Source of the DNA: a bacterium
GTDB lineage: Bacteria; Omnitrophota; Gorgyraeia; Zapsychrales; Fredricksoniimonadaceae
Direction: 5' to 3'
Assembly: GCA_021783915.1 (NCBI GenBank)
Contig: JAJXTI010000003.1
Span: 9,712 to 46,718, forward strand
DNA length: 37,007 nt
Positions within the stretch are counted from its first letter, which is position 1, and every line of letters starts with the position of its first letter. Positions 740 through 17,810 of the stretch are shown here, in pieces. A program made the position numbers and the translations under genes. The notes under the pieces were generated by a model, which was not told where the DNA came from, did not search any database, and worked only from the letters and a program-made list of their open reading frames with translations.

Positions 740-3099
740 TGCAAAACCCCCCCATAATGGTAGACAACTTGACAAGGTTGAAGCAATTGGGCTTTTTGCG
801 CGTTTACGTTATTTTATTTGTTTTTTTATTTTTGGGAGCGTCGTACGTACAAGCACAGGATTTTGTTTCCGATCAGGCAAGTTCAAAGAGGGATTCCTCC
901 GAAATTGTTCGTTTATCATGGAAAGCCTCCAGGTCTGGAGATCTCAAGACACTCTCCAGCTTGACTGACGAAATAATTAAGACCTATGGAGATAGGGCCA
1001 AGGCTTTGGCTTCCGAATTAAGCAATTTCCCCCCTCGTAACAAGATTAGCCATTATAAAATCATGTGTGATGTGGCTACTGCTTTGTTTATTAAGGCCGA
1101 GGCTTTAATGCATCAAGGGAAAAAAGAAGAGGCGATCAAGGAGTTTAAGAGTATTATTGCCCAATATCCCGGGTCCCAGTGTTTCGACCCCAGCCGGGGT
1201 GCTTATTGGTCGGTGGCGGAAAAGTCACAGGCCAGTATTGATGTCATGTTAGGAGTTACCGGTCCAATAAAAGAAACTGTTGATTTGAGACCACAAACTA
1301 TGCCTACTTTGGCTTTTCCTGGTAAAGAAAAAGAGGTGGATTACACTAAGTATGGCAATTTTCTTAATGTAGGAACCAGGGATTATCATTATCAAATTAC
1401 CGACCGAAAAGGGCTCATCGCCGCTTTAGGTGAGGGTATTTATCCTAATATATCAGATGTTTATGAAGATCCACAATATAAGAAAGCATTGAAAGAAGGG
1501 CGTTTAAAGGGAAGTCACTGGGATTTTATTAACACCCCAGACTTGCAAGCTGCTTTATATAAATGGATTACTGCCCCTGAGTCTTGGGGGGTACGTTTGT
1601 TTTATATGGGTATTGTTTTTGAAAAGGCCAAAATGTATTATGAGGCCATTAAATGTTACCATGCGGCCATTGTGCAATTTCCAGGGACTTTAGCTTGGAC
1701 GTATTGGCATACACCGTGGTTCCCATCTCAGGCCGCGATTGCTAAAATCCATTACATCATTCGCACACACCCTGAACTTAAACTAGAATTTAAAGGGGCA
1801 AAAATTAAAATTCTCAATTTTTTTGATAATGACCCTTCCAATAAAATTCCAGTTACAAATCCAGGAGAAATCCGACAGCTTGATAGTGTTGAACTTGCCA
1901 AGGAAGCTTCAGATGTAGAAAAACAAAAGAATCTTTTAGGAGAACCAGTTAAAAGTTTAGGGCATGGGGTTGTCCATTTTGTCAAATATGCCAACGGCCA
2001 TTGGCAGCTTATTGTCGATAATAAACCTTTTCTCATTAAAGGCGTTACTTATACGCCGACGAAGGTCGGACAAAGTCCCGATGATGGTACGTTGGCTAAT
2101 TGGATGGATGACGACCCTAATCCTGCCTATACGGCTTGGGTCGATAAAAATGGTAACGGTAAACAGGACCCTGATGAACCTAACGTGGGTGATTTTACTC
2201 TTATGAAGGAAATGGGAGTAAACACCCTTCGTATTTACTATAATCCTATTAAACCTAAAAAAGAATTTTTAAGAAAAATGTATAAAGATTATGGTTTTAT
2301 GGTTTTAATGGGCAATCTTATTGGTAAGTATGCGGTTGGTTCCGGCGCTTCCTGGTCAGATGGGACCGATTATGAGAACCCTGAGCAACAGAAAAATATG
2401 ATGGAGTCTGTCAAGCGTATGGTCATGGAATTTAAAGATGAACCTTATATTTTGATGTGGCTGTTAGGTAATGAAAATAATTATGGGGTGGCATCCAATG
2501 CTGATAAAAAGCCTGATGCTTATTATAAATTTGTTAATGATGTCGCCAAAATGATTAAATCGATTGATCCAAACCACCCCGTTGCTATTTGTAATGGGGA
2601 CACTTTATTTTTAGATAAATTTGCTAAATATGCACCTGATGTGGATGCGTATGGTGCCAATGTTTATCGTGGGGATTATGGATTTGGTTCTTTTTGGCAG
2701 GAAGTGGCGGAATTGACAGATAAACCGGCTTTTATTACTGAATATGGGGCCCCATCTTACAGTGGGCCTGGTATGAGCACGCAAGAAGCCCAGGACGCAC
2801 AGGCTGCTTATCATAAAGGTAACTGGTTGGACATACTTTACAATAGTGCAGGCTACGCCAACGGAGAAGGTAACGCCGTTGGTGGAGTTGCTTTTGAGTG
2901 GTTAGATGAGTGGTGGAAGAATTATGAGCCTGCAATTCATAATACTAATGTTGATGTAGTGGGTCCTTTTGCTGGCGGTTATTATTATGAGGAATGGTTT
3001 GGTTTATTTGGCCAGGGAGACGGTAGGGATAGCCCATACTTGCGCGAACCCAGGAAAGTATATTATACTTATAAAGAACTCTGGAACTCCAAGGAGTAG
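736..3099 (+). CDS. Secreted or membrane-anchored clan GH-A glycoside hydrolase (GH2-like/GH158-like TIM barrel) with N-terminal TPR-like helical modules
   Basis: Start is probably ATG 736 or 739, overlapping the permease TGA (the ORF track starts at 679). Hydrophobic N-terminal segment ending 'VQA-QD'. 'WLLGNENNY' (acid/base Glu), 'ITEYG' (nucleophile Glu), 'FEWLDEWWK'. DxNxNG Ca-binding-like loop 'DKNGNGKQD'. Confidence 0.8.
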   Translation: MMQNPPIMVDNLTRLKQLGFLRVYVILFVFLFLGASYVQAQDFVSDQASSKRDSSEIVRLSWKASRSGDLKTLSSLTDEIIKTYGDRAKALASELSNFPPRNKISHYKIMCDVATALFIKAEALMHQGKKEEAIKEFKSIIAQYPGSQCFDPSRGAYWSVAEKSQASIDVMLGVTGPIKETVDLRPQTMPTLAFPGKEKEVDYTKYGNFLNVGTRDYHYQITDRKGLIAALGEGIYPNISDVYEDPQYKKALKEGRLKGSHWDFINTPDLQAALYKWITAPESWGVRLFYMGIVFEKAKMYYEAIKCYHAAIVQFPGTLAWTYWHTPWFPSQAAIAKIHYIIRTHPELKLEFKGAKIKILNFFDNDPSNKIPVTNPGEIRQLDSVELAKEASDVEKQKNLLGEPVKSLGHGVVHFVKYANGHWQLIVDNKPFLIKGVTYTPTKVGQSPDDGTLANWMDDDPNPAYTAWVDKNGNGKQDPDEPNVGDFTLMKEMGVNTLRIYYNPIKPKKEFLRKMYKDYGFMVLMGNLIGKYAVGSGASWSDGTDYENPEQQKNMMESVKRMVMEFKDEPYILMWLLGNENNYGVASNADKKPDAYYKFVNDVAKMIKSIDPNHPVAICNGDTLFLDKFAKYAPDVDAYGANVYRGDYGFGSFWQEVAELTDKPAFITEYGAPSYSGPGMSTQEAQDAQAAYHKGNWLDILYNSAGYANGEGNAVGGVAFEWLDEWWKNYEPAIHNTNVDVVGPFAGGYYYEEWFGLFGQGDGRDSPYLREPRKVYYTYKELWNSKE

Positions 3100-4927: not shown

Positions 4928-6256
4928 ATGTCCCAAGCAATCCAGCGTGGTATTATAATTTTAACGGTTCTGTTAGTGGCTGCTATTGGGATTGCTGTGT
5001 TTGCCCTATATCAAAAGAAAGTGATTGAAGAAAGAAATTTAAGCCTCCAAGATGAACTTACCGATGTGAAAGGTAAACAAGAAAAAGCTCTTGCCGATTC
5101 TAAGAAATATCAACAAGACATTGCTGATCTGAAGAAGAGTCTTACGGATAAAGGTAGGGAAAATGACCAATTACAAAGTTCTTTGGACGATTTAAAAAAG
5201 AAAGCGGATGATTTAACAAGTCAAATCAATCAAGCCAATCAAGAACGTGATGATTGGAAGAATCGTCTGGAGACAGTTCGTAAAGAACGTGACCAGTTGA
5301 TGACCAAATTGCAACATCAACCTGTGAAAATTGTTTACAAGGAGAAACCTGTTCAGCTAAAATCTGAAGATACGTCTTTAACTTCCGTTGTGCCTGCTGC
5401 TACTCCAGCAACAGGGGATCCGTATTGGGCTGGTATTCTTAAACAAAAGGCCGAACTCGAAGTACAATTAGATAAAGCCAAATCAGACTTGGATGCTGCT
5501 GGTTTACAGGTCGCTGACTTAAGGAAACAAAATTCTGATTTACAACTCCAAATCAAAAGTTTGAATAATGATAAATTAGAGGTGGAACGTCGTTTGACTA
5601 ATGAAAAGAAAATGATGGCTGATAATTTCGATAAAGAAATACAAGACTTGCAACGTAAAGTGAAAGATGGAGACGATTTAGCTAGTAATTTATCTATGGA
5701 AGCGGCCCGCGCCCGGTCAGATCAAAAAGTTGCCAATGATTTTGTAACTAAGGTCAAAGAGGACAACAATCAGTTACAGTCTGATGTAAGACAGTTGGTA
5801 TCGACCAAACTTGCGCTTGAAAAAACAGTAGCACGTTTGAAACAAGAAAAAGATGATATGAGTAAAAAACTGGCAGATACAGAAGGGGTCATACAAGATC
5901 GTATTAATGAAATTTGGCAGATTAAACAAAATCTTGATCAAAAGATTTCTCAAATTAAACAAGTCAAAAACAATAAAGAAATAGAGTTGCCTCCGATTGT
6001 TGTCAACGCTTCAGGTAATGACCAATCTCAAACTCAAGCCCGGGCCCATAAGATCATTAGCATTAACGAGAAAAATAATTTTGTAATCATTGACTGGGGT
6101 GAAGCTCAAGGCAGCAGCATAGGACGAGTTCTCAAAGTTTATCGTGATGGTAGTGAAATTGCCCTTCTACAGGTAATTCAAGTGCGTCGCGACATTTCCG
6201 CAGCTGATATTAAGGATCAAAAGGCCAAGTTACAAATTGGCGACCAGGTTCGATGA
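4928..6256 (+). CDS. Single-TM-anchored long coiled-coil protein with a small C-terminal beta domain
   Basis: SD GGAGG upstream. N-terminal TM helix, about 300 aa of heptad-like K/E/Q/L-rich sequence, and a C-terminal 'NFVIIDWG...G...KVYRDG...LQIGDQVR' beta-rich domain. Confidence 0.8.
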   Translation: MSQAIQRGIIILTVLLVAAIGIAVFALYQKKVIEERNLSLQDELTDVKGKQEKALADSKKYQQDIADLKKSLTDKGRENDQLQSSLDDLKKKADDLTSQINQANQERDDWKNRLETVRKERDQLMTKLQHQPVKIVYKEKPVQLKSEDTSLTSVVPAATPATGDPYWAGILKQKAELEVQLDKAKSDLDAAGLQVADLRKQNSDLQLQIKSLNNDKLEVERRLTNEKKMMADNFDKEIQDLQRKVKDGDDLASNLSMEAARARSDQKVANDFVTKVKEDNNQLQSDVRQLVSTKLALEKTVARLKQEKDDMSKKLADTEGVIQDRINEIWQIKQNLDQKISQIKQVKNNKEIELPPIVVNASGNDQSQTQARAHKIISINEKNNFVIIDWGEAQGSSIGRVLKVYRDGSEIALLQVIQVRRDISAADIKDQKAKLQIGDQVR

Positions 6257-13369: not shown

Positions 13370-14132
13370 ATAAAAATCCCGTCAGCGGGGAAGAGGGGGT
13401 TGCTAAATTCTTTTGACCTGACAGTTGGCTTAAATAAGCCAGATGCCCGGCCTCGACCGCCCACGCGAATGCTTTGGCCAAAAGGGCCGGATTTCCGGCG
13501 GTGGCGACCGCAGTATTTGCCAATACAGCATCAGCACCCGATTCCATTGCTTCGGCCGCTTGTGAAGGAGCGCCGATGCCCGCATCGACGACAACAGGCA
13601 AATCAATTTCATCGATAAGGATTTTAATAAATTCGCGCGTTTTCAGACCTCGGTTACTTCCGATTAATGAACCGAGAGGCATGATAGTGGCGGCCCCGGC
13701 TTTCATCAAAGCTTGTGCTGCGTAAAGATCTGGGTACATGTAAGGCAACACCACAAAACCTTCCGCGGCCAAAATTTCAGTGGCTTTGATGGTTTCAGCG
13801 TTGTCCGGCAACAGATATTTACTATCATTGATGACTTCAATTTTGACCCAATTGCCGTGGCCGGAAGCTTTGGCCAAGCTGGCAATGCGCACGGCCTCTT
13901 GGGCGTTACGCGCACCGGAGGTGTTAGTCAAAAGTGTGACATTTTTAGGAATATAATCAACAATATTATCCTCGTGATGTTCCAGGTCAATACGGCGTAA
14001 GGCCACGGTAACAATTTCTACACCCGAGGCTTCGATGGAGTCTTTCAAGTCTTTTTTGTTTTTGAATTTTCCGGTACCCAGGAAAAAACGACTTTTGAAT
14101 TGTTTGCCAGCGATCATTAAAGAAGAGTCCAT
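13347..14132 (-). CDS. thiG: Thiazole synthase
   Basis: 'SRFFLGTGK', 'TVALRR', 'NTSGAR', 'WVKIEV', 'LLPD', 'VDAGIG.PS', 'SSPLTG'. Confidence 0.97.
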
Positions 14133-14134
14133 TA

Positions 14135-14335
14135 TTAACCGCCTCCGACAAAGGCGACCAGTTCAATTTGATCCCCCTCTTTGATGCTCGTATGGTTCCA
14201 GTCATTGGAGGTAATGATATGACCGTTGACTTCCGTGATGATATTCTTGGGTTGTTTACAAAACTGGGAGACAATATCCGATAAACAAGAACTGTTGGTC
14301 AGTTCTTTCATTGTTCCATTGATCGTGACTTTCAT
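14135..14335 (-). CDS. thiS: Sulfur carrier protein ThiS
   Basis: 66-aa ubiquitin-like protein ending 'FVGGG'; SD AAGGAG upstream on the - strand. Confidence 0.96.
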
Positions 14336-14580
14336 AGGATCCTTCTCCTTAATTTTTAGGATACAGCAGTTTGCCGTAATACGGTATGTAGAGCTTTTAG
14401 AGTGTCCATTTTAGTGTATTTGTTTTAAAAAATCAAATGTCGTGTGAGAGGTAAAATTTCATAAAATTATTACTTTATATGATTTTATTTGTTATAAAAT
14501 ACAACCGTTTACTAAGTTAAGCGCTGGATAAAAAATACTTTTATTTTGTAGGGCTTTTTGTATAATATATCGTTTTTTCA

Positions 14581-14600
14581 TGGTTCGACAAAGCTCACCA
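14581..14600. repeat. Short imperfect palindromic element (TGGTTCGACAAAGCTCACCA)
   Basis: TGGT...ACCA arms enclose TCGACAAAGCTC. It resembles a dispersed intergenic REP-like motif I recall from many bacteria; single copy in this window. Confidence 0.4.
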
Positions 14601-14628
14601 CTGCGTCTGGGCGTTGGACCATATAGGG

Positions 14629-14655
14629 ATGCAGTTAACAATCCAAGGGCCGTAA
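14629..14655 (+). promoter_or_regulatory. Candidate leader uORF MQLTIQGP* upstream of speD
   Basis: ATG CAG TTA ACA ATC CAA GGG CCG TAA lies in a GC-richer structured leader and ends 43 nt before the speD ATG. TATAAT at 14561-14566 upstream. Confidence 0.45.
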
Positions 14656-14698
14656 AGGTTCCTTCGCCAGAGTGAGGCTGGCAGAAAAGAGAGCGTAG

Positions 14699-15121
14699 AT
14701 GAGCAAAGCTGGGGTATTCGGGTATGAATTATTGTTAGACCTCTATGATTGTAAACCCGGTGTGTGTGATGATTTGACCCTGTGCTACAATTTTCTCGAT
14801 GAAATCGTAGGATTCTTAGGGATGGAGAAACAAGCTCCTCCGTCAATATTTAAAAGCGACGGTGTGCGTTTCCCGGACAAAGCTGGCCTCTCAGGATGGG
14901 TACCTTTAATTGAAAGTTCCATAGTTATCCATACATTGACCCCTAAAGACTTCATCACCGTAGACATTTATTGCTGCCGTGCCTTTAGTAATAAAAAAGC
15001 AGAGGAGTTTTGCCGCCGGTTCTTTTCTCCTAAACGTGTGGAAGCGCAGTTTGTCGAACGCGGAATGAACTATTATGCGCAAGAAAATGCAGCGACTCAG
15101 AAAGAATTAGTACATAAATAG
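14699..15121 (+). CDS. speD: Pyruvoyl-dependent decarboxylase, S-adenosylmethionine decarboxylase (class 1B) family
   Basis: 'GYELLLDLYDC', 'GLSGWVPLIESSIVIHT' (self-cleavage E-S site), 'VDIYCC', 'ERG'. Confidence 0.8.
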   Translation: MSKAGVFGYELLLDLYDCKPGVCDDLTLCYNFLDEIVGFLGMEKQAPPSIFKSDGVRFPDKAGLSGWVPLIESSIVIHTLTPKDFITVDIYCCRAFSNKKAEEFCRRFFSPKRVEAQFVERGMNYYAQENAATQKELVHK

Positions 15122-15147
15122 CTCTATTTTATAGAGAGGGAGTTTAA

Positions 15148-15186
15148 GAGGGGGATTGTTTTACAACGATCCCCCTTTGATTTTAA
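15148..15186 (+). terminator. Intrinsic terminator-like hairpin after speD
   Basis: GAGGGGGATTGTT (15148-15160) pairs with AACGATCCCCCTT (15165-15177), followed by a T-rich tract. Confidence 0.6.
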
Positions 15187-15239
15187 TTCGTTTCTTTAAG
15201 TAAAATCACTTCTGAACAAAGCGAAGGGTTTCCTCAAAT

Positions 15240-17810
15240 ATGCCTTATACAACCAACGATATCAAATCTATTGAAGCCAAGTGGCAAGAGTACTGGGATA
15301 GACACCAGACCTTCAGGGTGGAAGCTGACAGTACAAAAAAGAAATATTATGTGCTGGAGATGTTTCCTTACCCATCGGGAAAGATTCACATGGGTCATGT
15401 GCGCAACTACACCATCGGTGACGTGATTGCCCGTTACAAAATAATGCAAGGCTTTAATGTTTTACACCCGATCGGCTACGATGCTTTTGGCCAACCGGCG
15501 GAAAATGCCGCTATCAAACATAAAACCGACCCAGGGGAATGGACCTATCGCTGCATCGACCAGATGCATGAAGAATTAAAACGCATGGGCTTTTCCTATG
15601 ATTGGGATCGCGAGATTTCTACTTGCGACAGTGAATATTACAAATGGAACCAGTGGGTTTTTTTGAAGATGTTTGAGCGCGGTCTGGCATATAAGAAAAC
15701 TTCCTCGGTCAATTGGTGTCCTAGTTGCCAGACGACTTTGGCCAATGAAGAAGTCATCGATGGTACTTGTTGGCGTTGTAAATCCCTAGTGGTACAGAAA
15801 GATTTGGAACAGTGGTATTTGAAAATCACGCATTATGCCGAAAGCCTTTTGAAAGATTTAAAGCAGCTTCAAGACTGGCCGTCTCGCGTACGGATCATGC
15901 AACAGAACTGGATAGGCAAAAGTTTCGGTATGGAAATTTATTTTAAGGTCAAAGATAGTCAAGAGGTGATTACTGTTTTTACCACACGTCCCGATACTAT
16001 TTTCGGCGCCACTTATGTAGTACTGGCCCCCGAGCATCCATTGGTAAAGAAATGGGTTTCAGGTATTAAAGAAGAAAAAGATGTTTTGGCTTTCATTGAG
16101 AAAACGGCCAATAAAAGTAAGAGCCTTCGCATGTCCGGCGACCAGCGCAAAGAAGGAGTTTTTATAGGCCGCCATGCGATCAACCCCGTCAATGGTGAGA
16201 CAATCCCTATTTTTATAGGTGACTATGTTTTAATGGAATACGGGACAGGGGCCATTATGGCGGTGCCTACCAACGACCAGCGCGATTTCGAATTTGCCCG
16301 TCAATATCATCTGCCCATGCGTATTGTCATCCAAGACCCTAAAAATCTTAAAATCAACATTGAACAAATGGCTGAAGCTTACGAAGGCACAGGGGTCTTG
16401 GTGAATTCCAAACAGTTCGATGGTATCAATAACGAAGAAGCTAAAGAAAAGATTGCCCAGTGGATGCAAAAAGAGCATATGGGTAAAATCAGTGTGCATT
16501 GGCGTTTGCGTGATTGGCTAATTTCCCGTCAACGTTATTGGGGAACGCCGATACCTGTTATTTATTGTGAATCCTGCGGTGCAGTTCCGGTTCCGTATGA
16601 CCAATTACCTGTCCATCTACCTAAAAATGTGGAAATTACCGGCCAGGGTGGAAGCCCGTTAAATCGTATCGAAACATTTGTAGAAACAATCTGTCCTAAG
16701 TGTTTTAAACCTGCCCGTCGGGAGACTGATACCATGGCAACTTTCTTTGATTCATCATGGTATTTCTTACGGTTTTGTTCGGCACATAATAATAAAGAAA
16801 TTTTTAAAAAACAAGAGGCCAAATACTGGATGGAAGTGGACCAGTATATCGGCGGCATTGAACATGCGATTTTGCATTTATTGTATTCGCGTTTTTTTAC
16901 CAAATTCTTCAAAGATTTAGGTCTGGTTGATTTTAACGAACCGTTTAAGCGTCTTTTGACCCAAGGCATGGTTCTTAAGGACGGGGAAGTGATGTCTAAA
17001 TCCCGCGGCAATACTGTGGATCCTGATGAGGTCTTAAGTAAATACGGGGCCGATACCTTGCGTTTGTTTATTTTGTTTGCCGCACCTCCAGAAGACCAGC
17101 TAGAATGGAACAGCGATGGATTAGAAGGTGCGTGGAAATTCTTAAATCGTATTTATCAAATGGTAGATAAGCCTATAGGAACTGATGTCGTTCAAAGCGA
17201 ACGTACTATTGAAAATATACGAAATGAGCTATCAAATTACATTTTGAATATCTCTGAGATGGATGATAATGATAAAGGACTCGAACGTGCAAGAAATTTA
17301 GCGATAAAACAAATTACCCAATCCTTTGAAGAAGGCTATAAGTTTAATACGGCCATTAGCCAGATCATGATTTTAGCTAATGCCATTGATAAATATACTT
17401 TTCATATGAGAGTTGCTATGGAAGGGGGGAGCCCTTCAGAAAGATTCCTAGTTTTTCGTAGAAAATTATTCTTACAAACTCGATCTATAGAAACTTTGAT
17501 TTTATTACTTGCCCCTTTCACCCCACATTTATGCGAAGAGCTTTGGCAGATGATAGGAAAGAAAGACTCCACCGTCTGCAAGGTTGCCTGGCCCAAATTT
17601 GATGCAGCGGCCCTTAAACAGACCGAAGTGATTTATGCCGTTCAGATTAACGGTAAGATCCGTGGCCAATTCACTGCCCCTGTCACAGCTAGTCAAGAAC
17701 AACTGTGTGAACTTTGCATGACAGACACTAACGTTACCCGTTATTTGCAAGGGGCTACAATAAAAAAATTCATTGTCGTTCCCAATAAATTGGTTAGTAT
17801 AGTTGTTTAA
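15240..17810 (+). CDS. leuS: Leucine--tRNA ligase
   Basis: 'MFPYPSGKIHMGH', 'TTRPDT', 'GTGAIMAVP', 'DWLISRQRYWG', 'GGIEHAILHLLY', 'VMSKS'. Confidence 0.98.
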   Translation: MPYTTNDIKSIEAKWQEYWDRHQTFRVEADSTKKKYYVLEMFPYPSGKIHMGHVRNYTIGDVIARYKIMQGFNVLHPIGYDAFGQPAENAAIKHKTDPGEWTYRCIDQMHEELKRMGFSYDWDREISTCDSEYYKWNQWVFLKMFERGLAYKKTSSVNWCPSCQTTLANEEVIDGTCWRCKSLVVQKDLEQWYLKITHYAESLLKDLKQLQDWPSRVRIMQQNWIGKSFGMEIYFKVKDSQEVITVFTTRPDTIFGATYVVLAPEHPLVKKWVSGIKEEKDVLAFIEKTANKSKSLRMSGDQRKEGVFIGRHAINPVNGETIPIFIGDYVLMEYGTGAIMAVPTNDQRDFEFARQYHLPMRIVIQDPKNLKINIEQMAEAYEGTGVLVNSKQFDGINNEEAKEKIAQWMQKEHMGKISVHWRLRDWLISRQRYWGTPIPVIYCESCGAVPVPYDQLPVHLPKNVEITGQGGSPLNRIETFVETICPKCFKPARRETDTMATFFDSSWYFLRFCSAHNNKEIFKKQEAKYWMEVDQYIGGIEHAILHLLYSRFFTKFFKDLGLVDFNEPFKRLLTQGMVLKDGEVMSKSRGNTVDPDEVLSKYGADTLRLFILFAAPPEDQLEWNSDGLEGAWKFLNRIYQMVDKPIGTDVVQSERTIENIRNELSNYILNISEMDDNDKGLERARNLAIKQITQSFEEGYKFNTAISQIMILANAIDKYTFHMRVAMEGGSPSERFLVFRRKLFLQTRSIETLILLLAPFTPHLCEELWQMIGKKDSTVCKVAWPKFDAAALKQTEVIYAVQINGKIRGQFTAPVTASQEQLCELCMTDTNVTRYLQGATIKKFIVVPNKLVSIVV

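Follow-up and report, generated by a model that had tools for sequence, protein, structure and literature searches.

A conserved pair of hairpins at the ribosome-binding site of a speD-family decarboxylase gene in Omnitrophota

The locus and the compared sequences

We analyzed a stretch of 37,007 nucleotides (nt) of Omnitrophota DNA, hereafter called the window (GenBank assembly GCA_021783915.1, contig JAJXTI010000003.1, positions 9,712 to 46,718), and focused on the leader of a plus-strand gene of the speD family. Across a divergent intergenic spacer (14336-14698), this gene faces the minus-strand genes thiS (14335-14135), thiG, thiH and thiF. A terminator-like hairpin follows it on the 3′ side, which suggests a monocistronic unit, and leuS is the next gene beyond this hairpin. 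No further polyamine gene was found within the window. An earlier reading of the same sequence (the original prediction) had proposed that an arrest peptide or a structured RNA switch in the leader controls the gene. Our comparison with related loci points to a module of 38 nt, composed of two adjacent hairpins (H1 and H2) that are joined by a single C and lie directly upstream of the Shine-Dalgarno (SD) sequence. We consider it very probable that this module is a real, selected RNA structure.

The gene encodes a proenzyme of 140 amino acids (aa), in which the columns E72-S73-S74, H78 and C92/C93 are invariant among 30 aligned homologues. Its score against the NCBIfam model SAM_DCase_Bsu (TIGR03330) was 53.6 bits, under the equivalog cut-off of 75.65, and solved structures of S-adenosylmethionine decarboxylase (AdoMetDC) matched it weakly (2iii, E 6.7e-6). 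In pairwise alignments the window protein has a Thr where 2iii and 1tlu both have the Pro of HTWPE, a residue that is fully conserved in bona fide AdoMetDC according to PMC10407285. Thus, neither of these two marks of AdoMetDC (SpeD) proper, the equivalog score and the HTWPE Pro, was found in the window protein. The same paper shows a SpeD homologue of the Omnitrophota bacterium Candidatus Velamenicoccus archaeovorus to be an L-ornithine decarboxylase, SpeDC, which has the AdoMetDC fold and four diagnostic residues, Gln, Thr, Phe and Tyr (PMC10407285). The central region of the window protein contains Q45, T81, F85 and Y91, whose equivalence to the diagnostic positions of SpeDC is a guess. The window gene may therefore encode an ornithine decarboxylase (SpeDC) rather than AdoMetDC, and its product would then be putrescine instead of decarboxylated S-adenosylmethionine (dcSAM). 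As the label speD itself is uncertain, we refer to the decarboxylase gene below.

Database relatives of the 140-aa protein numbered 1095 at E <= 1e-5, and the named ones came from Candidatus Omnitrophota. An alignment of 30 relatives seeded one profile search of genome contigs, which returned 256 relatives; 80 loci were taken from these, nearly all of them Omnitrophota metagenome-assembled genomes. All comparisons use the window and these 80 loci (L001 and so on), that is, 81 sources. With 80 of 256 relatives covered, the true distribution of the motif is under-sampled. The gene order thiG-thiS, decarboxylase gene, leuS is common to most of the 80 loci. Eight sources carry the module in a long leader (the window, L001, L012, L015, L017, L021, L023 and L031). 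The identity of thiS to that of the window is 67-80% in seven of these eight carriers versus 45-59% in loci with short leaders, and thiG is likewise higher. Seven of the eight carriers therefore form one clade, with L031 as the outlier.

Conservation of the hairpin module

Both hairpins had been noticed in the original prediction, and both are present in the window as described: AAGGGCC/GTAAA/GGTTCCTT, in which the Gly-Pro-stop codons of a short upstream open reading frame (uORF) occupy the 5′ arm and the loop, and GCCAG/AGTGAGG/CTGGC. We refer to them as H1 and H2, respectively.

H1 is a helix of 8 base pairs (bp) that keeps its pairing while its sequence drifts. All eight pairs form in seven species and seven pairs in the window, which has lost 1 nt and is left with a bulged T, so that 63 of the 64 pair cells are filled. 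Of 5000 column shuffles, 24 reached 63 paired cells. A double change is seen at pair 3, with C-G in six species and G-C in the other two. Pair 7 occurs as C-G, T-G or T-A, again with a double change from C-G to T-A. Pairs 4-6 vary among A-T, G-T and G-C, and wobble-mediated changes are seen at pairs 4-7. The loop is different in every species and measures 5-7 nt. These counts are register-aware, as the alignments produced by MAFFT and cmalign shift the 5′ arm of H1 by one column in L001, L015 and L031 and thereby understate the pairing. On the automatic alignment, with three sequences off register, 93% of the cells were paired versus 23-49% for slid partners, and its covariation score was reached by 7 of 500 shuffles. 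RNAalifold predicts both hairpins, and in all eight module cores the minimum-energy fold is H1 plus H2 (z between -1.0 and -3.1). The many G-T pairs of H1 would be C-A on the other strand, and therefore the helix can exist only in plus-strand RNA, that is, in the sense leader.

H2 behaves differently. It is identical in seven of the eight species, within a block flanked by TTC and A, and L031 departs from it at two positions of the purine-rich 7-nt loop (AGGGAGA), which turns the central tetranucleotide GTGA into GGGA. We compared this with the 4-fold degenerate sites of the adjoining gene in the same eight species, which have a mean pairwise identity of 0.39 and not one invariant column among 28 shared ones. 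Neutral sites are thus saturated. Against this background the identity of 17 nt in H2 indicates strong purifying selection on the sequence and not only on the fold. In all eight leaders H2 ends 13-16 nt before the ATG, directly 5′ of the SD. Since the distance to the promoter varies (81-132 nt from the -10 box to the ATG), the element is tied to the translation start rather than to the promoter. On the comparative evidence, rather than on folding energy, the conservation of H1 and H2 is in our judgment far beyond chance.

As a single observation on the L031 variant, GTGA and GGGA both fit GNRA, and an SD-like purine run persists in both versions of the H2 loop.

The exact H2 pattern occurs in 7 of the 80 loci, in one copy each and always before the decarboxylase gene, where it should be kept in mind that all loci were chosen via this gene, so that associations of the motif with other genes could not show. 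The window holds one copy of H2 even when up to 3 mismatches are allowed. H2 thus does not behave as a repeated element resembling a repetitive extragenic palindrome or a miniature inverted-repeat transposable element, having one match in the 37-kb window and one per module-bearing locus. A covariance model built from the eight sequences (R1) gave eight hits at E < 1e-17 among the 81 sources (471,724 bases) and found nothing there beyond its eight seeds; the next hit had E 0.64 and contained no H2. This candidate, L035 (E 0.014 when two loci were searched), was rejected as a member for want of H2. Searches of Rfam 15 with cmscan at E up to 10 returned no family match in the window (13800-15400) or in the L021 leader (2880-3060), nor was there a relevant match at gathering score in the whole window or in 40 further loci. 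No description of the leader was found in the literature searched.

Promoter and leader architecture

The coordinates of the features are given in Table 1. An extended -10 box of the TGTATAAT type is found upstream of the gene in 32 of the 34 close sources, and the two misses are L017, which is N-masked there, and L025, which reaches its contig end. In the window this box is preceded by an A/T-rich tract (14526-14555), and it is unlisted in a simple promoter scan for want of a good -35 hexamer. A second, similar box, TGTTATAAAAT, lies about 70-80 nt upstream of the first, and a box of this kind some 75-80 nt upstream has a pattern match in 24 of the 34 close loci. The two boxes stand on the same strand with an A-tract/T-tract between them, and species that differ in the rest of the intergenic sequence have kept the pair. 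The boxes may be tandem promoters. From the spacing to the -10 box, transcription would start near 14573.

In the window, 132 nt separate the -10 box from the ATG, and the range is 81-132 nt in the seven module-bearing leaders with a readable promoter. Leaders are short in 25 close relatives with a readable promoter, at 40-81 nt by the same measure, and these share a conserved ribosome-binding region of the AAAGGACGGC type. This distance varies by about 50 nt among the module leaders because some species have an extra 5′ hairpin, H0. A counterpart of H0 with the same loop and an altered inner stem is present in L001, and its 3′ half in L017, whose 5′ half is N-masked; the other five module leaders (L012, L015, L021, L023 and L031) have no H0.

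The box TTAACA also lies close upstream of the SD in at least eight distant loci that have no module (L028, L036, L042, L050, L054, L060, L066 and L067), and it abuts the SD in some of them, as in TTAACAAGGAGG (L050 and L066). It thus looks as if the module had been inserted between TTAACA and the SD. The SD itself reads AAGGAG in six of the eight module leaders, AAAAGAGAG in the window and AAAGAAGAG in L015. A terminator scan found no terminator within the leader (14573-14698), and what follows H2 is a run of purines, not of T, which excludes a classical attenuator.

Table 1. Features of the decarboxylase leader and gene, with the uORF products of the related leaders. An asterisk denotes the stop codon.
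Feature	Position in the window	Strand	Basis
Extended -10-like box TGTTATAAAAT, possible second tandem promoter facing the decarboxylase gene	14490-14500	+	sequence reading
Extended -10 promoter element TGTATAAT (TATAAT at 14561-14566)	14559-14566	+	conserved in close sources
5′ leader of the decarboxylase mRNA, about 126 nt	14573-14698	+	start placed by promoter spacing
Accessory 5′ hairpin H0, loop CCACTGCGTC containing CTGCGTCT	14580-14622	+	minimum-energy folds
uORF MQLTIQGP* (ATG CAG TTA ACA ATC CAA GGG CCG TAA)	14629-14655	+	direct reading
uORF peptide, window: MQLTIQGP*			
uORF peptide, L001: MQLTSNRPMKGLFARVRLA*			
uORF peptide, L021: MQLTTQRAVQACSPE*			
uORF, L017: open frame that continues into the main gene, in another frame			
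TTAACA box 5′ of the module	14635-14640	+	7/8 module leaders (not L031)
Hairpin H1 (5′ arm 14645-14651, loop 14652-14656, 3′ arm 14657-14664)	14645-14664	+	pairing kept in 8 species
Linker C between H1 and H2	14665	+	invariant, 8/8
Hairpin H2 (GCCAG 14666-14670, loop AGTGAGG 14671-14677, CTGGC 14678-14682)	14666-14682	+	near-identical in 8 species
Purine tract AGAAAAGAGAG, degenerate SD region	14683-14693	+	sequence comparison
AdoMet_dc-family pyruvoyl decarboxylase proenzyme, 140 aa	14699-15121	+	Pfam PF02675, E 2.2e-17
Terminator-like hairpin (15147-15178) with T-rich tail, after the decarboxylase gene	15147-15188	+	14 pairs, then GATTTTAATT

The upstream open reading frame

Arrest peptides in the leaders of polyamine genes are known from SpeFL, before speF in Gammaproteobacteria, and from MAGDIS, encoded by the uORF of eukaryotic AdoMetDC, and a Pro codon followed by a stop is known to slow termination. 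It had been proposed that the eight-codon uORF of the window, MQLTIQGP, acts in the same way, with translation stalling at the Pro-stop in the presence of polyamines and remodeling the downstream hairpins. The uORF is there and reads as claimed, its stop codon lies inside the H1 loop, and the caveat that it has no well-spaced SD is correct, as AGGG abuts its ATG directly. When the 127-nt leader was shuffled 5000 times with dinucleotides preserved, 1513 of the shuffles (30%) contained a closed uORF that starts with ATG and has eight or more codons, so that the uORF as such is at chance level; one ending in Pro-stop was uncommon (129 of 5000).

The original prediction had named an alignment of the regions upstream of speD homologues as its check, and we applied this check to the eight module leaders. 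The uORF ATG is present in four of them (the window, L001, L017 and L021) and is replaced by TTTATTAACA or similar in L012, L015, L023 and L031. MQLT is the sole part that the four peptides have in common, and it is common because the nucleotides ATGCAGTTAACA are conserved. The frames diverge because the length of the H1 loop varies (5, 6 or 7 nt), stop positions differ accordingly, and QGP-stop or any Pro-stop is found in the window alone. Neither a conserved start with a ribosome-binding site nor conserved C-terminal residues with a stop, as an arrest peptide would have, were found in the eight leaders. The likeness to SpeFL and MAGDIS is that the window has a short frame before a polyamine-pathway decarboxylase gene and that this frame ends in Pro-stop; however, those peptides are conserved in sequence and position, whereas here start, peptide, frame and stop are not. 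The claim of an arrest peptide is thus not borne out by the homologues, and we regard this mechanism as highly improbable. The uORF is most likely incidental, to judge from its lack of conservation. If so, an eye-catching Pro-stop uORF is a by-product of a conserved RNA sequence, which calls for caution with predictions that are based on uORFs.

The window leader contains a second ORF of 31 codons, which runs from an ATG at 14580 to a TGA in the H2 loop (14580-14675), has no SD and is not conserved. The uORF of L021 ends at the same TGA of the H2 loop.

Alternative pairings

The original prediction had also suggested that CTGCGTCT (14601-14608) pairs either with GGATGCAG (14627-14634) at the uORF start or with AGAGCGTAG (14690-14698) directly before the ATG. 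Both pairings can form in the window. The first comprises 8 bp at -10.3 kcal/mol, and the second is weaker, with 6 pairs at -6.6 kcal/mol. As a switch between two partners, however, they are not conserved. CTGCGTCT occurs only in the window and in L001, its pairings sit in the accessory hairpin H0, which is seen in only two to three species, and L001 keeps the GGATGCAG partner (8 bp, -11.3 kcal/mol). L001 has kept no partner resembling AGAGCGTAG in front of its ATG; the best duplex there with the 13 nt preceding the ATG is weaker and interrupted (-6.4 kcal/mol).

When pairings were sought more widely, among the flanks, both loops, the SD and the start of the coding sequence (30 nt), no helix of at least 5 bp was common to the eight leaders, and no alternative pairing, pseudoknot or SD-sequestering helix is conserved across them. 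Full-leader folds differ by species on whether H2 or a competing 5′ pairing wins. The part of the earlier proposal that concerned a structured RNA is therefore upheld in its two hairpins, of which H1 also displays compensatory changes, but not in the proposed alternative-pairing switch. The comparative data favor a conserved structure and not a defined switch.

Other candidate pairings were tried and set aside. Pairing of a U-tract with the SD is frequent but uninformative, since U pairs with both A and G. The pairing GAUGC:GCAUC was found in two to three of the eight leaders only. The pairing AACAR:YUGUU, an alternative for the 3′ arm of H1, is possible in five of the eight (L001, L012, L017, L021 and L023) and missing from the window, L015 and L031.

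Interpretation of the module

The main clue to the mechanism, as we read the alignment, is the contrast between the two hairpins: in H1 the sequence drifts and the pairing is kept, whereas in H2 the sequence is fixed. We tentatively favor the reading that H2 is a protein-bound translational operator and H1 its scaffold, which we hold to be possible though short of probable. The module would be a cis-acting element of the 5′ untranslated region that works on translation initiation. Within it, H2 would be recognized in a sequence-specific manner by a factor acting in trans, for which a protein is the likeliest candidate and a small metabolite a less likely one. A protein is favored because both stem and loop of H2 are fixed and one simple hairpin makes a poor pocket for a small ligand. 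At 13-16 nt before the start codon, H2 would be within the space needed by the 30S subunit, and a factor bound to it would set ribosome loading at the adjoining SD and tune decarboxylase synthesis. H1 would hold H2 in a defined presentation, while H0 and the uORF would be lineage-specific additions. The action at the level of translation, the factor that binds H2 and the direction of control are what we infer. Related lineages apparently have other devices at this gene, namely long conserved leaders (L034 and L035) and AUU or AUC start codons.

Several observations weigh against this interpretation. The H2 stem never varies (5 of 5 pairs), so that it is without covariation support and can also be read as a DNA palindrome. 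The comparison includes eight sequences only, from one clade and one outlier, and the independent events in H1 are few, perhaps two double changes. The whole leader of the window folds no better than its shuffles (z = 0.16). In full-leader folds H2 is not always favored: the window and L012 alone give it a pair probability above 0.95, while the value is 0.16-0.43 in L017, L023, L015 and L031 and about 0 in L001 and L021. The predicted unpaired probability of the SD ranges from 0.23 to 0.94 with no common pattern. Furthermore, 26 of the 34 close sources do without the module, which is therefore dispensable for the gene.

Alternatively, H1 and H2, possibly together with the TTAACA box and a 5′ U-tract, could form a small aptamer that binds a metabolite of the pathway (putrescine, spermidine, ornithine, S-adenosylmethionine (SAM), dcSAM or methylthioadenosine) and alters access to the SD. 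A conserved structured leader stands before a polyamine-pathway gene in eight of eight cases, a covarying stem adjoins invariant nucleotides, and the spermidine-sensing SAM-I variants before polyamine genes are a validated precedent (PMC10853860). A 5′ segment that is U-rich or contains GAUGC pairs with the 3′ arm of H2 and the SD in the folds of L021, L017 and the window, and might serve as an expression platform. However, the potential 5′ parts of such a platform differ among species, and mutually exclusive pairings that could constitute one were not found across the eight leaders, and no pseudoknot, junction or helix sequestering the SD was found to be shared by them. What is invariant amounts to a single simple hairpin, which is little for a selective pocket; its stem does not covary, and no Rfam family matches, the SAM classes included. 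We therefore rate a riboswitch as rather unlikely. The narrower version, in which H1 and H2, perhaps with the TTAACA box, represent a new and very small riboswitch class for putrescine, spermidine or ornithine that gates translation of the decarboxylase, is less likely still. A constitutive element that senses nothing is also conceivable, be it a 5′ stabilizer against ribonucleases, a processing site, or a standby or decoy site with an SD-like loop. Stable hairpins directly 5′ of the SD would fit such a role, as would the SD-like purine runs in both versions of the H2 loop (GAGG, and GGAG in L031), the weak SDs of the window and L015, and a GC-rich hairpin of unrelated sequence just before the SD in L062 and L064. 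A structural role, however, predicts compensated drift as in H1 and not the identity of 17 nt in H2 over saturated divergence, and the H2 loop matches the anti-SD sequence, as it is commonly given, over 4 nt only. This explanation is in our view fairly improbable.

At the level of DNA, the inverted repeat GCCAG-N7-CTGGC could be an operator to which a dimeric transcription factor binds, either to block elongation or to act on the promoter, and H2 is indeed a perfect 5-7-5 palindrome whose arms never vary. But the 7-nt spacer is conserved as much as the arms, and the constant distance of the site is that to the ATG and not that to the promoter. The site also lies well downstream of the presumed transcription start and a single nucleotide from H1, whose G-T pairs make sense only in RNA. 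We thus consider a DNA operator very unlikely. Mimicry of a tRNA anticodon arm by H2, with its 5-bp stem and 7-nt loop, was considered as well and rejected, as the loop has no U at position 2 and the gene is not a synthetase.

Comparison with known systems

Protein-bound translational operators include the operator hairpins of Escherichia coli thrS, which lie next to the SD, and the operator hairpins bound by phage coat proteins. The module resembles both in having a hairpin of fixed sequence beside the SD, a fixed distance to the start codon and a second, supporting helix. In contrast to them, the gene behind the module encodes a metabolic enzyme and not an RNA-binding protein, and the binding partner is only proposed; the H2 loop, with 7 nt on a 5-bp stem, is without anticodon-mimic features of the U33 type. 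Comparative genomics by Weinberg and colleagues in 2017 reportedly yielded orphan structured-RNA candidates. The module is like these in being rare, restricted to a lineage, conserved and consistently associated with a gene. It differs in being absent from Rfam 15 and in its eight representatives, which are too few for covariation statistics on the whole structure.

What is known about the control of polyamine synthesis in bacteria comes mainly from a few model systems. The only validated RNA that senses polyamines is a re-used SAM-I fold: the spermidine riboswitch is a variant SAM-I aptamer with a four-stem junction that acts by transcription termination (Salvail, Balaji, Roth, Breaker 2023, PMC10853860). 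This riboswitch and the module are both structured 5′ leaders before polyamine-making genes and plausibly feedback devices. The difference is that here two adjacent simple hairpins lie at the ribosome-binding site, with no match to the SAM clan and no terminator in the leader. Neither a four-stem junction aptamer nor an intrinsic terminator was found in the leader of the window, and the L021 leader gave no SAM-clan match either.

The module is thus a compact leader structure on which strong purifying selection acts, and it stands where ribosomes bind the mRNA of a polyamine-pathway decarboxylase, in a phylum almost without cultured members. Binding by a protein would mean that it marks a post-transcriptional regulator new to science. 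If it is bound by a metabolite, it would represent a new riboswitch class and, should that metabolite be a polyamine or a polyamine precursor, the second RNA sensor of the polyamine pathway, structurally unrelated to the one derived from SAM-I. Either way, it offers a defined 38-nt target for reporter and binding assays.

Other leaders, start codons and neighboring features

Different leaders were observed at the same gene in other loci. L034 and L035 (positions 2760-2980 of each locus) have a leader of about 200 nt that is nearly identical in the two species, allows several possible hairpins and contains …GATGAAGGATGCGCGGCTAA[TC]GCCAACCTTCCTCGATCCCTCGAGGCAAGCCGTGGTCCAAGTTACAAGGAG…. Yet another leader is shared by L045, L052 and L064. 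Structured leaders seem to have arisen repeatedly at the decarboxylase gene, to go by these sequences.

The start codon also varies. In L040 (2198-2290), L068 and L070 (about 2950-3010), the stop-bounded frame contains no ATG, GTG or TTG before the conserved FGY, and in L050 and L053 a codon of the ATG/GTG/TTG type is present only upstream of the SD. Distant relatives, including L050, L053, L066 and L079, share a conserved AAGGAGG-N6-7-AT[TC]-AAR just upstream of position 3001. This suggests an AUU or AUC start codon in these distant relatives; in L040 an ATT of this kind is where the NCBI protein (P0083) starts. If real, weak start codons would give the decarboxylase gene another control at the level of translation. 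In a subgroup of the short-leader loci (L008, L019, L024, L026 and L029), an in-frame ATG is conserved 11 codons (33 nt) upstream of the annotated start (ATGGCNAAAAAAC…AAAGGACGG…ATG), and some database proteins of 149-152 aa start there. This upstream ATG could be a real N-terminal extension or an artefact of gene calling.

In the minus-strand direction, no match to the thiamine pyrophosphate (TPP) riboswitch or the thiS motif was found upstream of the thiSGHF operon (window 14336-14560, minus strand, E up to 10), nor in 40 related loci at gathering score. The Rfam searches of 40 loci gave just a tRNA in L047 and a c-di-GMP-I (cyclic di-GMP) aptamer in L037. The aptamer (1712-1798, 46.6 bits, above gathering score) lies about 1.2 kb upstream of the decarboxylase gene and is unrelated to the module. 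Elsewhere in the window, an ORF of 442 aa (4928-6256) resembles the rod domain of eukaryotic intermediate filaments below the threshold (PF00038, 36.7 bits, cut-off 40) and probably encodes a coiled-coil protein.

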